Assembly: GCA_040225955.1 (NCBI GenBank)
Contig: JBECUL010000020.1
Coordinates: forward strand, 1 to 34,853
Source of the DNA: Candidatus Asgardarchaeum abyssi
GTDB lineage: Archaea; Asgardarchaeota; Asgardarchaeia; Asgardarchaeales; Asgardarchaeaceae
Direction of reading: 5' to 3'
DNA: 34,853 nucleotides
The position numbers and the translations under genes are program-made. A model generated the notes under the pieces. The model saw nothing but the letters and a program-made list of their open reading frames with translations, was not told the DNA's origin and did no database searches. Of the stretch, positions 24,038 to 31,428 are shown in pieces (within the stretch, counting starts at the first letter, position 1; each line of letters starts with the position of its first letter).

Positions 24038-24134
24038 TCTCTTATTTTCTTTTTCAGAAACTTTAAATATCTTTTTTATAAAATTGTTGTGGAAACATAC
24101 TTTTTATATTATGAAGCATATTGGGGGGTGTTCT

Positions 24135-24851
24135 ATGAGTTTTGATGTGAAAAGAGCTAAAACCGGAGTACCTGGAATGGACGAGCTTCTACATGGAGGA
24201 ATCCCTAGACGAAATGTGGTGTTACTCTCTGGTGGTCCTGGAACGGGAAAAACGATATTTGGACAACAATTTTTATACAAAGGCTTAGAAATGGGTGAAA
24301 ATGGAGTTTATGTTGCATTGGAAGAGCATCCCGTACAGATACGTCAAAATATGGCATTATTTGGCTGGGATGTTAGACCATTTGAAGAAGAGGATAGATT
24401 TGCAATTGTAGATGGATTTACTGGTGGTATTGGTGAAGCTGCCAAAAGAGAGCGTTATGTTGTTAGAGCTCCCGATGATGTACAATCGCTTATTGATGTT
24501 TTAAAGACCGCAATTAGGACTGTGAATGCTGAAAGGGTTGTGATAGATTCTGTAACTACACTTTATTTAACAAAACCTATTATTGCAAGAAATACGGTAC
24601 TGCAGTTGAAAAAGGTCCTTTCTGGACTAGGAACTACATCATTATTAATAAGCCAAGTTAGTGTTACAGAAAAAGGATTTGGTGGCCCTGGTGTTGAACA
24701 TGCAGCCGACGGAATTATAAGACTAGACCTAGACGAAGTAAATGGTCAGCTTGAAAGAAGCCTCATAATTTGGAAGATGAGAGGAACAGCTCATAGTATG
24801 AGACGCCATAAATTTAAAATAACTAATGAAGGTATTGTTGTAATTATTTAA
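24135..24851 (+). CDS. Single-domain KaiC-like/RecA-superfamily ATPase
   Basis: [39 protein letters not shown]. Start placed at ATG 24135 after a GGGGGTG RBS. Confidence 0.92.
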
Positions 24852-24885
24852 TTTATTCTTATATGAATAAAAGGAGGTTAGATAA

Positions 24886-25293
24886 ATGAGTGGTGAAGTG
24901 CCTCTTAAGCCTATTGGGAGAGAAGAAATACATAAGTTGGAAACCGCTCTTCTCTTAGGTACACTCTTTTCCCCTAAAGTACTAGAACTCCTAAGAAATC
25001 CAGACGAGAGATTAACATGGGTTGACTCATTAGCTGTTGCTGCTGGCGCTTTGGCTAGAGAAAAAGCTGGGATGACAATATCTCAAATAGCTGAGGATTT
25101 AGGTCGAAGTGAAGGAACTATCAGAAATCATCTTAAAGGGAAAACAAAGGCTGGAGAGCTTGTTATTGAGACATACAATAAATTTGTTAGAGAGGGCGTG
25201 AAAATAGAGATTGAAGCTTGGAGTGAAGCCCAGACTAAGCTAGATATCGTAAAACAAAAGCTCAAAGAAATACTTCAAATGCTGGAATCATAA
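24886..25293 (+). CDS. HTH regulator of the type paired with KaiC-like ATPases in archaea (COG1318-like)
   Basis: ERLTWVDSLAVAAGALAREKAGMTISQIAEDLGRSEGTIRNHLKGKTKAG; AGGAGG RBS. Confidence 0.85.
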   Translation: MSGEVPLKPIGREEIHKLETALLLGTLFSPKVLELLRNPDERLTWVDSLAVAAGALAREKAGMTISQIAEDLGRSEGTIRNHLKGKTKAGELVIETYNKFVREGVKIEIEAWSEAQTKLDIVKQKLKEILQMLES

Positions 25294-25426: not shown

Positions 25427-28258
25427 GTGGTCTACCTTCTAAAGTCGATACATCTTAAAAATTTTCAGACTCACAGAGATACGTTTATAAATTTTGATAA
25501 TAGGCCTATTCTTCTAATTACGGGAGCTAATGGAGCGGGAAAAACACTAATACTAGATGCTCTCTTATTAGCCATGGGAGGGGCTAGTAAACGAGCTAAG
25601 CAAATGGGGTTATCTTCGTTCATAGGACCTTTTGGGGGTACAGCGAAAATAAAAATTGTTCTGAATAATCCAATAATTAATAAAAGACGGCTCTTTCAGA
25701 CAAATGTTCCAAATCTCGATACCATCATAGATAAAGATCTCTTAACTATAGAAGTTGCCATTGATAAACGTGGGGCTCGTCAATATTCAATAAATGGTAG
25801 GAAAACAATAGATGGAGTACCAATAAGTGTGTATCATATACAAAAAATATTCGCAAGCGTTCATTTACACCCTTCTGATCCTTTATTTGTTACCGAACAA
25901 GGAACCATAAATTCGTTTGAATCACTTACTCCTCATAAGCGATTTGAAATTCTTTTAGAATCCTCCGAGCTGAAGGCTTATCTCGATAAATTACTTAGCA
26001 CTCAAACAGAGTTAGAAAGAGAAGAAAAAACAGTAAAACCACTACTGGCTAGATTAAAAGAGGAAGAAAGAAAACTACAAATCTTAAAGAGCGCTTACGA
26101 AGCATATAAAAAACGTCTTGAGATAGAGAAGGCTCTTAAAAGATTAGAGGTTGAGCTTTTATGGTCCGAAGTGGACGAAATTGATAAGGAGCGTGCAAAA
26201 ATACTTGAAGAGCTTAATAATAATGAACAAACTCTCTTTAACTTGCAATCAAAGATAAGAGATCTACATACTGAGGAATCGAAACTTCTTCAAAAGAAGG
26301 CAAAGTTACAGAAAAAAATAGAACAGCTTAATGAGGAGTACGATGACTTAATAAAAAATATAGAAATACTAAAAGAAGAGAAAAAAGAAGTTTTGGTGGC
26401 TCTAGCTAACTTAGATGATGAAAAAAAGACTTACGAATCAAGCGTAGATCAAATTGAATCTATAAGAGCAGAGATAATTCGAATTTCTGAGGAGATAGAT
26501 GAAATAAATAATGAGTTAAAAAATATAAAATTACAGAAAGATAATTTATCGAGAGGGCTTATATTATTAGACACAAGCATTAGTCCATATGAATACAAAC
26601 GATTAAACGAAGCTATTTCCTTTCTCGAAAAGGTGAAGGAATACCATCTGGAAGATAGAATAATTGGACCCCTAGTCTCTATGGTGCGTGTGAAAGACGA
26701 GTATTCTTCATTCTCAGATGCGATAAAGATGGCATTACGTAATTTTCTTTTTGTCTTTATTGCTATGGATAGTGAAGCATTTAAATATGCAAAAAGAATT
26801 TTTGATGAATTAGGAAGACCTAGAATCACAATAATAAGGTTTGATCTAATTTCTGAAAAGAAAAGAGCTCCTATTTTACATAATTCCATTGTTAATTGGG
26901 CTTCAAATTTAGTGGAGGGTAATCCATTTTTCATCAAGTTTCTAAAAAGTGTGGATGATACACTGATCGCTTATAATGTTGATGACCCTAATATTTTAGT
27001 CGAAATAGCTAAGCAATTTAATGCAAGAATAGTTACTCAAGATTGTAATAGCTATTTTGTTAAATACGGAGGCTTCACAAGACCTCCTAAAGTACCGACT
27101 ATAGAATTAGGTATCTCATTAGATTCTATGAACGTTAATATGTATGATATTCATAGAGCTAAAAAACAATTATCTGAAAAGGAAAAGCAGTTAGTATCAA
27201 AGAGAATTAAGTTACGAGCCAAGTTGCACACATTAAAAGAAAAGCTTGGCAGATTAGAAGCTTTTTCAAATAAAATAACCGGGCTTGATGAGCTCTCTCT
27301 GCGCAAGAGAAGCATTGAGATAGAAGAGGAACTTAAGAGTTTAAGTCAGCAAGCGGAATATCATCGACAGGAAATACTACGATTTAAGAAGGATATGGAA
27401 CTATTGGATGAAAAACATAATCTGATAAACAGACAAATAGGCGAGGTTCAGCTCAGAATAAAAAATATTACAACAAATATTAAGGAACTAAAACAAAAAC
27501 TCTCAACATTGGATAAGCAATATGAGGAAAAGTTAAGAATTGCTAAGGAAAAGGGAATTCGTCCAGAAAGTGTAAGATCCTTTGATGAAATTCGAAATGA
27601 AATGATGAAGTTAAAAGGCATGTTGGATGCCATTAAGGTAACTGTTGCAGATAAAGAGAAATACGAAAATCAAAAAAAGATGGTCAGCGATTTAAAAGCA
27701 TATCTAAGCAAAAGAAACGAACACATAAGGAACTTACGTGAAGATTTACGCTTAAGAATCGAAGAGTGGAAAAGAATATTGCTAGAAACAATATCAAAGA
27801 TACAAATCTTAATGAATTTATTATTGCGTCCAAGAATAGATGAGGTTGTATTAAAACTTACAAATTTGGAAAATCCAGAGAAAACCGAACTTATAATAAC
27901 TGCAAGAGTTGAAAAGGATGGTAAGTTTAGAAGTCTCTATGCGCTTAGTGGAGGAGAAAGAGTATTACTAGCTCAAGCATTTATACTCTCGTTACACATT
28001 TTAACTAATGCACCAATTCAAATTATTGATGAATTAACACAAAGGCTGGATGAATCATATCAGTTAGCTGCCTTTGAAATGGTCGCCAAGGCTCAGAAAC
28101 TTATGTCATCAGGCAATCCGAATAACCTTCAAGCACAGTTTATTCTAATGGCTCCAATAATAAGAAAAGAAGGACTTCCAAAATATGTAAAACATATAGT
28201 TTTCATAAAAGTAAGATCAGAGGGAGATAAATGGGTAACGGTGACAATGGAACACTAA
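25427..28258 (+). CDS. SMC-family ATPase, Smc5/Smc6-like
   Basis: LKNFQTH, Walker A GANGAGKT, Q-loop FVTEQG, coiled coils, hinge IIGPLVSMVRVKD..AIKMAL, signature LSGGER, Walker B/D-loop IIDELTQRLD, QFILMAP; GGAGG RBS at 25411. Confidence 0.9.
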   Translation: MVYLLKSIHLKNFQTHRDTFINFDNRPILLITGANGAGKTLILDALLLAMGGASKRAKQMGLSSFIGPFGGTAKIKIVLNNPIINKRRLFQTNVPNLDTIIDKDLLTIEVAIDKRGARQYSINGRKTIDGVPISVYHIQKIFASVHLHPSDPLFVTEQGTINSFESLTPHKRFEILLESSELKAYLDKLLSTQTELEREEKTVKPLLARLKEEERKLQILKSAYEAYKKRLEIEKALKRLEVELLWSEVDEIDKERAKILEELNNNEQTLFNLQSKIRDLHTEESKLLQKKAKLQKKIEQLNEEYDDLIKNIEILKEEKKEVLVALANLDDEKKTYESSVDQIESIRAEIIRISEEIDEINNELKNIKLQKDNLSRGLILLDTSISPYEYKRLNEAISFLEKVKEYHLEDRIIGPLVSMVRVKDEYSSFSDAIKMALRNFLFVFIAMDSEAFKYAKRIFDELGRPRITIIRFDLISEKKRAPILHNSIVNWASNLVEGNPFFIKFLKSVDDTLIAYNVDDPNILVEIAKQFNARIVTQDCNSYFVKYGGFTRPPKVPTIELGISLDSMNVNMYDIHRAKKQLSEKEKQLVSKRIKLRAKLHTLKEKLGRLEAFSNKITGLDELSLRKRSIEIEEELKSLSQQAEYHRQEILRFKKDMELLDEKHNLINRQIGEVQLRIKNITTNIKELKQKLSTLDKQYEEKLRIAKEKGIRPESVRSFDEIRNEMMKLKGMLDAIKVTVADKEKYENQKKMVSDLKAYLSKRNEHIRNLREDLRLRIEEWKRILLETISKIQILMNLLLRPRIDEVVLKLTNLENPEKTELIITARVEKDGKFRSLYALSGGERVLLAQAFILSLHILTNAPIQIIDELTQRLDESYQLAAFEMVAKAQKLMSSGNPNNLQAQFILMAPIIRKEGLPKYVKHIVFIKVRSEGDKWVTVTMEH

Positions 28259-29016
28259 TTGAAAAAGAAGAATTCAAGATAATTGAATCTCTGGTAACAC
28301 CAGTTCCACCAAGAGAGATAACAAGACAACTTTGGGGTATCGCCAAAAAATATGAAACTGCGATAAAAGAGAATTTAATAATCTCAATTGAAGAGGCAGA
28401 GCAAGATCGTAATATCGTTAATATGTTATTTAGGAAATATACCGATTTAAAAACAAGAATTCTTGATGCCAGAATACTTCAAAACTTTGTATCTATGCAA
28501 AGGCTCCGAGACGTCCATGTTATCATGAAGTACCTTGATAAATCAGAAATTATCAAATATATCGCGTATCAAGTAAAAAGACGAGGTACACCTATAGTAA
28601 CGTTTACTGGCTATTCATTACGTTCAACTCCACGCTTAGAAAGAAAATTAACTTCTTCTAAGGTTGAACCCAAATATGATCAAAATATTTCTATTTTTAA
28701 GGAGGAGGCAGAACGTACTCTTTTAATGTTTAATGAAGAAATAGATATGTCTTCTGTTGATAAATTGGACATAGATTCTTTAAAGAAAGAAACTCTTATG
28801 AAATTAAAACCTTATTTTGATAAACCAATAAAGATAAAAACGCTTTCACGCCTTTTATCGCATATCCAATTAAATATCTTAAGCCAAATGATTCGTGATA
28901 ATGAGCTTTTTGCATACAAGAGAGGAAAAGACTCTATTATTATATCTAAGACACCAAAATATCTATCGGAAGATAATAAATATGAAACCATTGTTATTGA
29001 AGGTGCTGAAAAATGA
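28231..29016 (+). CDS. Putative kleisin, Nse4/EID-like
   Basis: Overlaps the SMC stop. VNMLFRKYTDLKTRILDARIL fits the recalled Nse4 N-terminal pattern NxLF-x10-LDAxxL; basic linker; C-terminal winged-helix-like segment. Confidence 0.6.
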   Translation: MGNGDNGTLIEKEEFKIIESLVTPVPPREITRQLWGIAKKYETAIKENLIISIEEAEQDRNIVNMLFRKYTDLKTRILDARILQNFVSMQRLRDVHVIMKYLDKSEIIKYIAYQVKRRGTPIVTFTGYSLRSTPRLERKLTSSKVEPKYDQNISIFKEEAERTLLMFNEEIDMSSVDKLDIDSLKKETLMKLKPYFDKPIKIKTLSRLLSHIQLNILSQMIRDNELFAYKRGKDSIIISKTPKYLSEDNKYETIVIEGAEK

Positions 29017-29576: not shown

Positions 29577-30037
29577 TGAAGCTAAATATTAGAGTGTTAT
29601 ATATTGAGTGTATGGTTTGCAGCTCAAGAGTTTCTATTCGGGATGCTGAAAAATTAGAATGGCGGAAATGTAGAATCTGTGGTGGATTCATATGTCCTGA
29701 TTGTTTAGAGTTAGTTTTGCGCGAAATGAACGGAGTTTGTCCATCGTCAATTTATATGGGATTTAAACCTCACAAGATGGAATTAGATGAAATATCTGCA
29801 CAAGAAATTTTGATACTAGCTAAAGAAATATACTCCAGAGGAAGAGTGGGACCTATAATTAAAGAAGTATTCTATTCAGATCCACTAACAGTTCAGTTTG
29901 AGGCACTTACATTTAGAAAGAAAAAAGCTAAAAAAAGAGACGAGGCAGAAGTTAGAGAGGAAATTTGGCGGAGATACGGATTAGTTTTAGTTAAAAGAGC
30001 AAGGGGGAAATTCGTTACATGGGAACCAATAACATAG
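29576..30037 (+). CDS. RING-like Zn-finger protein (candidate E3)
   Basis: TAATG stop/start overlap at 29574-29578 (alternative GTG at 29564). Ligand pattern C-x2-C-x16-C-x2-C-x4-C-x2-C-x11-C-x10-H. Confidence 0.65.
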   Translation: MKLNIRVLYIECMVCSSRVSIRDAEKLEWRKCRICGGFICPDCLELVLREMNGVCPSSIYMGFKPHKMELDEISAQEILILAKEIYSRGRVGPIIKEVFYSDPLTVQFEALTFRKKKAKKRDEAEVREEIWRRYGLVLVKRARGKFVTWEPIT

Positions 30038-30534
30038 CTTTTGACAAAACAAAAGTATATCCAGTTTATATTCTCTCTAGAGTTGTTGAGGAAATAAAAG
30101 AATTTTGTACAAAGTGCATGCCAAATGAGGCGATAGGAGTTCTGCTTGGTTATAAGCTTAAATTCAATAATAAACTTTACACGAAAATTGTAGATTGGGC
30201 AACTGGATCTGCTAATATTTCTCCCTATCATGCTGAGTTTACCGAAGGAGGAATTTTGGAGTATCATCTATTTATTGAAGAGCGATATATGAACAACAAA
30301 AATAGGCCTCATGTTGTTGGAGTTTTTCATTCTCATCCTTTTGGTACCGATCCTGCATTTTCTGGTATTGACATAAGTACTTTTTCAAATCCTCTATATC
30401 TCGAGAACGGAAATATTTTCATCCTCTTAGATCCATTAATTGATGCGTTTAAAGTGTTTGTGATTGAGAAAGATGAAGGAAATTATATTTTAAGGGAAGC
30501 TGATTGGTGTGAATATTCGCCTCACATCATCTAA
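30019..30534 (+). CDS. JAMM/MPN+ metallo-isopeptidase (Rpn11/CSN5-like)
   Basis: PNEAIGVLLG (catalytic Glu), VVGVFHSHPFGTDPAFSGID, FILLDP. Confidence 0.9.
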   Translation: MGTNNIAFDKTKVYPVYILSRVVEEIKEFCTKCMPNEAIGVLLGYKLKFNNKLYTKIVDWATGSANISPYHAEFTEGGILEYHLFIEERYMNNKNRPHVVGVFHSHPFGTDPAFSGIDISTFSNPLYLENGNIFILLDPLIDAFKVFVIEKDEGNYILREADWCEYSPHII

Positions 30535-30552: not shown

Positions 30553-31428
30553 ATGAGTCCTAAAAATAATTCTGGTGACGAAAAAACTTCAGTATCCTTA
30601 TATTATTTTGAGGAAGATGTCTTCGACAGAACAAGACGCTTTTTCGGCGACGACAAATTAAATATTATAAGAAGAAGTAAGGTTCTTCTTGTTGGTGCTG
30701 GCGCTGTTGGTAACGAAGTCGCTAAGAATTTGGGGCTCTTAGGAATTGGGCAACTCAATTTAGTTGATTATGATATGGTTACAAAATCTAATCTAAATAG
30801 ATGTGTTTTCTTCAGACCTCAGGATCATATGAAAAAATATAAAGTTGAGGCTTTAGCCGAGCGGTTAGGCGAAATATCTAATACTAAAGTTAAGTTTTTC
30901 ATAGGAAAAATTGAGGAGGCTCCTAACACTATTTGGGATGTCGATTTAATAGCTGTTGCTGTAGATAACAATTACGCCAGATGGTTTATTAATGCAAAAA
31001 ACCTGTCGCTGGAGAATCCACTACCTATGGTAAATGGTGCTATGGGCCGTGAATTCGTACAAGTTGATGTTCTTTTCCCTCCTTATACAGCATGTCTCAC
31101 TTGCAGTTGGAGTGAAGACTATTATAGACAAATTATACAAGGTGCAGTGTACGAGAAATGTGATAATTTTTTCATAGATACTCTTCCTAAATTTCCCGCG
31201 ATAAGTTTTGCAACATCATTAGTTGGAGCTATAATGTCTGTTGAAATCGTTAAGATTTTAGTAGGTCTCTCTAAATTTAAGAAAGATCGGAAGTGGGAAC
31301 CTAATTTTGAACCCTTAGTTGGCATGTCCATAAAGTATGATTTTGTTAAGCATAATATCTCTCTTTATAAACTAAATAAAAATCCTGATTGTGTTGAGCC
31401 GCTTTGCAGAAAAAATATTGAATATTAA
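30553..31428 (+). CDS. E1-like ubiquitin-activating enzyme (ThiF/MoeB superfamily, Uba2/Uba3-like)
   Basis: VLLVGAGAVGNEVAKNL, VDYDMVTKSNLNR, VDNNYAR..IN, PPYTACLTC, candidate catalytic Cys in YEKCDN, C-terminal KNPDCVEPLC; AAGGAGG RBS. Confidence 0.9.
   Translation: MSPKNNSGDEKTSVSLYYFEEDVFDRTRRFFGDDKLNIIRRSKVLLVGAGAVGNEVAKNLGLLGIGQLNLVDYDMVTKSNLNRCVFFRPQDHMKKYKVEALAERLGEISNTKVKFFIGKIEEAPNTIWDVDLIAVAVDNNYARWFINAKNLSLENPLPMVNGAMGREFVQVDVLFPPYTACLTCSWSEDYYRQIIQGAVYEKCDNFFIDTLPKFPAISFATSLVGAIMSVEIVKILVGLSKFKKDRKWEPNFEPLVGMSIKYDFVKHNISLYKLNKNPDCVEPLCRKNIEY

Follow-up and report, generated by a model that had tools for sequence, protein, structure and literature searches.

A probable kleisin subunit of an SMC5/6-like complex in an Asgard-restricted family of hypothetical proteins

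Described SMC complexes and the Asgardarchaeum locus

[quoted passage not shown] The locus described here lies on a stretch of 34,853 nucleotides (the window), contig JBECUL010000020.1 of an Asgard-archaeal metagenome-assembled genome (Candidatus Asgardarchaeum abyssi, 2.6 Mb, 93% complete). The gene in question encodes P0001 and is found between the genes of an SMC protein, P0002, and of a KITE subunit, P0003. P0001 is considered here to be the kleisin subunit of a second, SMC5/6-like Asgard SMC complex, with a probability of about 0.8. It is best described as a functional and positional equivalent of Nse4, its membership of the Nse4/EID sequence family being unproven.

In the text of the preprint by van Hooff et al. 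(bioRxiv 10.1101/2024.01.07.573240), TACK and Asgard archaea are described as carrying two SMC operons, one of them SMC5/6-related, with an Nse4-related kleisin, an Nse1/3-related kite and the gene order SMC-kleisin-kite. By looking at what lies between the SMC and kite genes, its authors recovered kleisins that had been missed, in P. syntrophicum and Heimdallarchaeote LC-3. The table rows for Heimdallarchaeia UBA460 and Thorarchaeia give an SMC5/6-related SMC, an Nse1/3-related kite and Nse4_related = 0. A fourth subunit goes unmentioned in the preprint text, and 'RING' occurs in its supplements only for eukaryotic Nse1 and Nse2. Archaeal SMC5/6-like complexes are already known and the P0001 family is a new, unannotated member, which probably escaped the hidden Markov model (HMM) searches of that study.

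Nse4/EID3 (NSMCE4), the eukaryotic SMC5/6 kleisin, has an N-terminal helical domain of helix-turn-helix (HTH) type and a linker to which KITE proteins bind, and its C-terminal winged helix sits on the other head. The same plan is proposed for P0001, and the two share an L-D-A-R stretch, which lies in the predicted neck helix. At 261 aa P0001 is much shorter; in the yeast Nse4 chain the residue numbers of the matched part go up to 388. It would presumably bridge a homodimeric SMC and bind a homodimeric KITE, in place of the Smc5/Smc6 and Nse1/Nse3 heterodimers. Compared with eukaryotic SMC5/6, no equivalents of Nse2, Nse5 or Nse6 were seen with the P0001 module.

ScpA (PF02616) is of similar size (~250 aa), is encoded between smc and a KITE gene and binds neck and cap by the mechanism proposed below for P0001. 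MukF of MukBEF and JetA of Wadjet are likewise kleisins with KITE partners, encoded in the order kleisin-KITE-SMC, unlike SMC-P0001-KITE. Both are much larger kleisins with dimerising N-domains. Wadjet further differs in its JetD nuclease, which is missing from the P0001 locus, and the P0001 module is near-universal within whole Asgard families, unlike patchy defence islands. A Wadjet- or MukBEF-like defence reading was ruled out on the gene order, the lack of a nuclease and this near-universal presence.

Synteny, predicted fold and predicted interfaces of P0001

The genes of P0002, P0001, P0003, the zinc-finger protein P0004 and the JAB and ThiF proteins form a tight run in a single orientation (Table 1). 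P0001 overlaps by 28 nt with the upstream SMC gene and by 4 nt (ATGA) with the downstream P0003. The order SMC - P0001 homologue - KITE - zinc finger was kept in 15 of 15 loci sampled from several Asgard families, mostly with abutting or overlapping genes; four of these loci lie on short contigs and were judged as far as the DNA runs. The SMC homologues of the sampled loci have ~940-1020 aa. Another operon, on a different contig of the same genome, encodes an SMC of 1197 aa, the 249-aa P0007 with a weak ScpA match and the ScpB protein P0008 (Pfam 2.4e-33). The canonical smc-scpA-scpB gene order is the same as that of the window operon and P0001 therefore occupies the kleisin position of the second SMC operon. 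Genomes of family f12 likewise have the P0001 family together with a Pfam-recognisable ScpA at another locus.

A word-indexed search with P0001 returned a single relative, 48% identical, from 'Candidatus Asgardarchaeia archaeon'. An exhaustive profile search extended the family to 28 proteins and a second profile search added ~28 more. These relatives have ~210-310 aa, the named ones are all 'hypothetical protein' and those with a named source are all from Asgard archaea (Thor-, Heimdall- and Asgardarchaeia). The family was identified in 65 of 400 Asgard species genomes, being near-universal in a few families (29/31, 11/12, 17/19, 3/3 and 2/2) and missing from others (0/135 and 0/86). Near-invariant residues of the N-domain are E57, D59, R60, D79, M89 and R93.

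The AlphaFold2 (AF2) model of P0001 was built from a 43-sequence alignment and has a mean predicted local distance difference test score (pLDDT) of 74. It comprises four confident helices over residues 27-118 (pLDDT ~80-94), a disordered stretch followed by a further helix, and a winged helix (pLDDT ~91) of the topology helix-strand-helix-helix-hairpin, with helices at 178-195, 202-208 and 211-222 and strands at 199-201, 227-231 and 235-239. The predicted layout is that of a kleisin: helical N-domain, disordered linker and C-terminal winged helix. It bears out the helical N-domain, low-structure linker and C-terminal helix plus hairpin of the original prediction. Residues 123-170 are presumed, by analogy, to be the KITE-binding stretch. 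In a Foldseek search of the model against PDB no match was significant. The best two, 7tve_G (E 0.013) and 7qcd_F (E 0.02), are chains of yeast Smc5/6, probably Nse4 to judge from their residue numbering (45-388), and the fifth was the condensin chain 6yvu_C. Whole-chain matches spanning both domains of P0001 were obtained with kleisins only.

A complex of P0001 with two segments of the SMC protein (residues 1-245 and 700-943) was predicted with an own family alignment for each chain. The score was 0.66, against 0.18 for the best of three controls, although SMC-kleisin complexes have been solved and the pass may in part come from the model having learnt this fold class. Of 80 solved complexes 58 reached the score mark used, as did 2 of 110 mismatched pairs; these counts are rough since own alignments were supplied. 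At least 73% of contacts recur between the runs, and the partner pLDDT is 67 or higher. At the predicted neck interface, kleisin residues 53-110 contact both coiled-coil strands near the head (SMC 180-213 and 752-798), and the invariant SMC residues H766, D773 and R777 face the invariant or near-invariant E57, R60, D79 and R93 of the kleisin. At the other site, kleisin residues 210-232 and 249-258 are predicted to contact the C-terminal lobe of the head at SMC 887-932, which is probably the 'cap' face given its position after Walker B. The model supports binding of P0001 to the SMC protein but does not show it.

The partner proteins indicate the type of complex. A profile of the window-type SMC (A6) matched human SMC6 (163.5 bits) and yeast SMC6 (149-154 bits) best, the yeast matches covering nearly the whole profile; SMC4 (112), Pyrococcus Smc (103), SMC5 (94) and SMC2/3 (~88 bits) scored lower, so that SMC6 exceeds any other SMC by about 50 bits. 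The canonical SMC of the same genome gave the opposite pattern (Smc 404, SMC1-4 194-232, SMC5 54). By these profile scores the partner SMC of P0001 is of the SMC5/6 type. The partner KITE, P0003, is of the Nse1/Nse3 (MAGE) type with Nse1 as its closest fold. It has no match to the ScpB Pfam model (PF04079), also matches ScpB significantly in Foldseek (E 1.7e-5), and MukE and JetB are among its other fold matches. Because the SMC is SMC6-like and the KITE Nse1-like, the complex is regarded as SMC5/6-like and P0001 as its kleisin.

A mechanism can be proposed from kleisin biology and the models. P0002 would dimerise through its hinge, and the N-domain of P0001 (~50-118, including the helix with D79) would form a helical bundle with the neck of the coiled coil, beside one of the SMC heads. 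The winged helix (178-240) would bind the far 'cap' side of the other head, and the flexible middle of the protein would carry a dimer of the Nse1-like P0003. The result would be a tripartite ring whose neck gate opens and closes with the ATPase cycle, holding or moving DNA. The roles of P0001 in ring closure, KITE binding and on DNA are putative ones.

Evidence against a kleisin assignment and alternative explanations

A number of results weigh against this assignment, most of them from profile searches. P0001 has no match in Pfam at E up to 1 and none in NCBIfam, and 27 of its relatives have no relevant Pfam domain in an all-Pfam scan at the same threshold. Neither P0001 nor these relatives match SMC_ScpA, Rad21_Rec8_N, Nse4_C (PF08743) or Nse4-Nse3_bdg (PF15412); PF08743 gave no match anywhere in the genome at E up to 10, and a whole-genome scan with Pfam ScpA gave nothing at the P0001 locus. 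The family HMM found no PDB chain at E up to 10 in a library that contains Nse4 and EID3 chains. With hhalign, the probability was below 1%, over the whole length and by domain, both for 31 Asgard ScpA proteins and for the products of the middle genes at SMC-X-KITE loci of other Asgard lineages. On the structural side, the Nse4 fold matches are weak and tied with unrelated three-helix bundles, and both SMC interfaces are predictions. In a maximum-likelihood tree of SMC proteins from Asgard archaea, computed with a quick search, rooted on Rad50 and without eukaryotic sequences, the window-type SMC stood apart from the canonical SMCs and did not group with the second SMCs that other lineages have. 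The branches are long and may have affected this placement, and the tree was not relied on.

A whole-genome scan with Pfam MAGE also gave nothing at the locus, but the MAGE control matched nowhere either and the scan is uninformative. The THO subunit Mft1, retrieved with P0001 by phmmer against PDB (E 0.001), is a coiled-coil-like match and was dismissed as compositional. Judged by sequence, P0001 belongs to a separate Asgard-restricted family which known kleisin profiles miss, and the description of the open reading frame at 28231-29016 as unannotatable in the original prediction agrees with the empty Pfam and NCBIfam searches and with the names of its relatives.

That prediction had also relied on an 'Nse4 signature' of 21 residues, said to align without gaps to a sequence attributed to human NSE4A. 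The two strings quoted in it were located at P0001 residues 63-83 and 214-238. A PDB search with the attributed NSE4A string retrieved a near-identical stretch, residues 73-93, of human EID3 (9lwi_D), a human Nse4 paralogue present in human SMC5/6 structures. The ungapped alignment exists, with 8 of 21 residues of P0001 identical to EID3 and 7 of 21 to the attributed string, but the match is not significant. Shuffled P0001 sequences reached the same identity to the fixed 21-mer in 0.2% of cases and the same BLOSUM score in 0.06%; as the 21-mer was chosen post hoc among ~300 possible windows, ~0.2-0.7 chance matches are expected (our own multiplication). In the 43-sequence family alignment D79 is near-invariant (41/43) and L78, A80 and R81 are partly kept, while N64, L66, F67 and L83 are peculiar to the window lineage, the family consensus there being S, A, Y and Y. 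Since chance matches are expected at this rate and only D79 is near-invariant, the motif match by itself is no better than chance and is not evidence. The stretch does fall within the helix pair that the complex model puts on the SMC neck. The corresponding third helix of fission-yeast Nse4, with a structurally important Asp, binds the SMC6 neck (PMC7297730).

The closest alternative is that P0001 is a fast-evolving ScpA-type paralogue, derived from a Smc-ScpAB operon that was duplicated in Asgard archaea. It would then have no particular common ancestry with eukaryotic Nse4, and its likeness to Nse4 would be just the generic kleisin layout. The canonical gene order, the significant ScpB match of P0003 and the weak fold matches to Nse4 without any profile link fit this explanation. 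It is nevertheless unlikely: the genome has its own ScpA-like gene, P0007, and neither BLAST nor hhalign relates P0001 to this protein or to 30 Asgard ScpA proteins; BLASTP likewise detects no similarity between P0003 and the ScpB protein P0008. An SMC6-like SMC, an Nse1-like KITE, a separate smc-scpA-scpB operon and yeast Nse4 as the top two fold hits argue indirectly for the Nse4 type. The original claim of an 'Nse4-type rather than ScpA-type' kleisin is upheld to that extent, while its 21-residue basis is lost and all kleisin profile tests are negative.

P0001 could instead be an unrelated helical and winged-helix protein that took over ring closure by non-orthologous displacement, its layout being convergent. 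No kleisin profile that was tried detects it, both three-helix bundles and winged helices recur in very many proteins, and the family is limited to some Asgard families while others have a different in-between gene. Yet its domain order, operon position and both predicted interfaces are exactly kleisin-like, only kleisins match the fold across both domains, and fast divergence is known for kleisins; displacement is accordingly held to be quite improbable. The resemblance of the C-terminal domain to winged helices of MarR, ArsR and PadR type in Foldseek would suit a small protein outside the ring, with a DNA-binding or regulatory function, whose gene is transcribed together with the SMC genes. 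This is very improbable considering the strict synteny with SMC and KITE across distant Asgard lineages, a complex prediction that beats its controls with contacts at both canonical kleisin sites, and a module that would be left with no kleisin. A kleisin closing an SMC ring, as originally proposed, is well supported by the synteny, the layout, the predicted contacts and the whole-chain fold matches.

Neighbouring genes, other Asgard SMC loci and significance

The features of the locus are collected in Table 1. Directly upstream of the SMC gene (24084-25293, +) the window encodes a KaiC-family ATPase (Pfam 2e-86) and a small HTH protein, the NCBIfam 'near_KaiC_dom' (6e-22), an arrangement kept solely in the closest relative (L007).

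Table 1. Features of the SMC-P0001-KITE locus and its downstream genes, with positions in the window
Feature	Position	Strand	Remarks
SMC protein P0002, 943 aa	25427-28258	+	Matches to Pfam SMC_N and SMC_hinge; intact Walker A, signature and Walker B motifs
Kleisin-like P0001, 261 aa	28231-29016	+	ATG at 28231, stop at 29016; Asgard-only family, no Pfam model
P0001 N-terminal helical domain, residues 27-118	28309-28584	+	AF2 helices 27-46, 53-69, 73-101, 104-118
21-residue 'Nse4 signature', residues 63-83	28417-28479	+	Inside predicted neck-binding helices
P0001 linker, residues 123-151, then helix 153-170	28597-28683	+	pLDDT <50; alignment columns of variable length, poorly conserved
P0001 C-terminal winged helix, residues 178-240	28762-28950	+	AF2 prediction; takes in helix and hairpin 214-238
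KITE subunit P0003, 187 aa	29013-29576	+	Tandem winged helices; closest fold Nse1
Zinc-finger protein P0004, 157 aa	29564-30037	+	Eight ligands, RING/FYVE-like pattern; conserved C-terminal domain
JAMM/JAB deubiquitinase-like gene	30019-30534	+	Pfam Prok-JAB 1.6e-8
ThiF/E1-like gene	30553-31428	+	Pfam ThiF 2.3e-36

In all sampled loci where the contig runs beyond the KITE gene, the zinc-finger gene comes next, and P0004 homologues occur in loci L007 and L008-L051. Of the P0004 ligands, C16, C36, C39, C47, C59 and H70 are present throughout 25 sequences, and at least 90% of these also have C19 and C44. The conserved C-terminal domain bears a REEQWRKFG-like motif. Matches to RING E3 ligases (RNF4, TRIM21) and to FYVE domains were all sub-threshold. 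Because the zinc-finger gene follows an Nse1-like KITE gene, P0003 and P0004 look like the two halves of eukaryotic Nse1 as separate genes. Two genomes of family f12 have in addition a shorter P0004 paralogue of 128 aa without the C-terminal domain (L045:791-1174 (-) and L046:3031-3414 (-)), ~1.5 kb upstream of the SMC gene and on the opposite strand. JAB and ThiF genes lie directly downstream of the module in the window; of the 15 other loci, L007, L043 and L044 show the same arrangement. In L046 they are placed ~3 kb upstream of the SMC gene, and the flanks sequenced at the remaining loci lack them. They are variable neighbours, whereas the zinc-finger gene is a constant member of the module.

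Other Asgard families present a different module (L052 and L054-L061, e.g. G116:C1:1916069-1919697), formed by an SMC of ~830 or 1150 aa, a gene of ~215 aa and a KITE of ~175 aa. The middle gene has no Pfam match, yet it aligns to Asgard ScpA in hhalign with 61% probability (E 8e-5). The window-type KITE profile matches the KITE of these loci and not ScpB. This profile gave essentially one match per genome and the two module types therefore did not turn up together in any genome. One genome of family f28 (L053, G307:C4) has a window-type SMC (1063 aa, scoring 370 bits with the family profile) and a KITE homologue, ~4.5 kb apart and on opposite strands; the 268-aa gene beside the KITE aligns with neither kleisin family.

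Family f6 includes two complete single-contig genomes (G014:C1 and G015:C1) in which the window-type SMC is the only SMC-hinge match, found in G014 at G014:C1:1349566-1352541. A search with P0009 as query detected no canonical SMC in G014, and Pfam ScpA matched in 0 of the 14 genomes searched in this family. The SMC5/6-like module appears to be the sole SMC complex of f6.

A further-reaching reading, which is tentative and rather doubtful, takes the P0001 family as what survives in archaea of the lineage ancestral to Nse4. The family would then be part of an Asgard 'proto-SMC5/6' holocomplex of four subunits, with an SMC6-like SMC, the P0001 kleisin, an Nse1-like KITE and a separate RING-like zinc finger, the last two corresponding to the pre-fusion state of Nse1. 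In some lineages this complex would be wired to the adjacent E1-like/JAMM ubiquitin-type system, and some Heimdall-type families would have no other SMC complex in the cell. If this were true, the ubiquitin-ligase-bearing architecture of SMC5/6 would predate eukaryotes.

For P0001 as a probable kleisin of an SMC5/6-like complex, the family would fill the kleisin gap in the published Heimdall- and Thor-type SMC5/6-related sets. An alignment of ~40-50 sequences could seed a model for annotating proteins which at present are 'hypothetical'. The family would also indicate that kleisins can drift past the reach of profile searches while keeping layout and interfaces, and calls of kleisin absence in comparative genomics would therefore be unreliable. 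With its four genes and a probably homodimeric make-up, the P0001 module would offer the complex in a compact form suited to reconstitution and structure solving.

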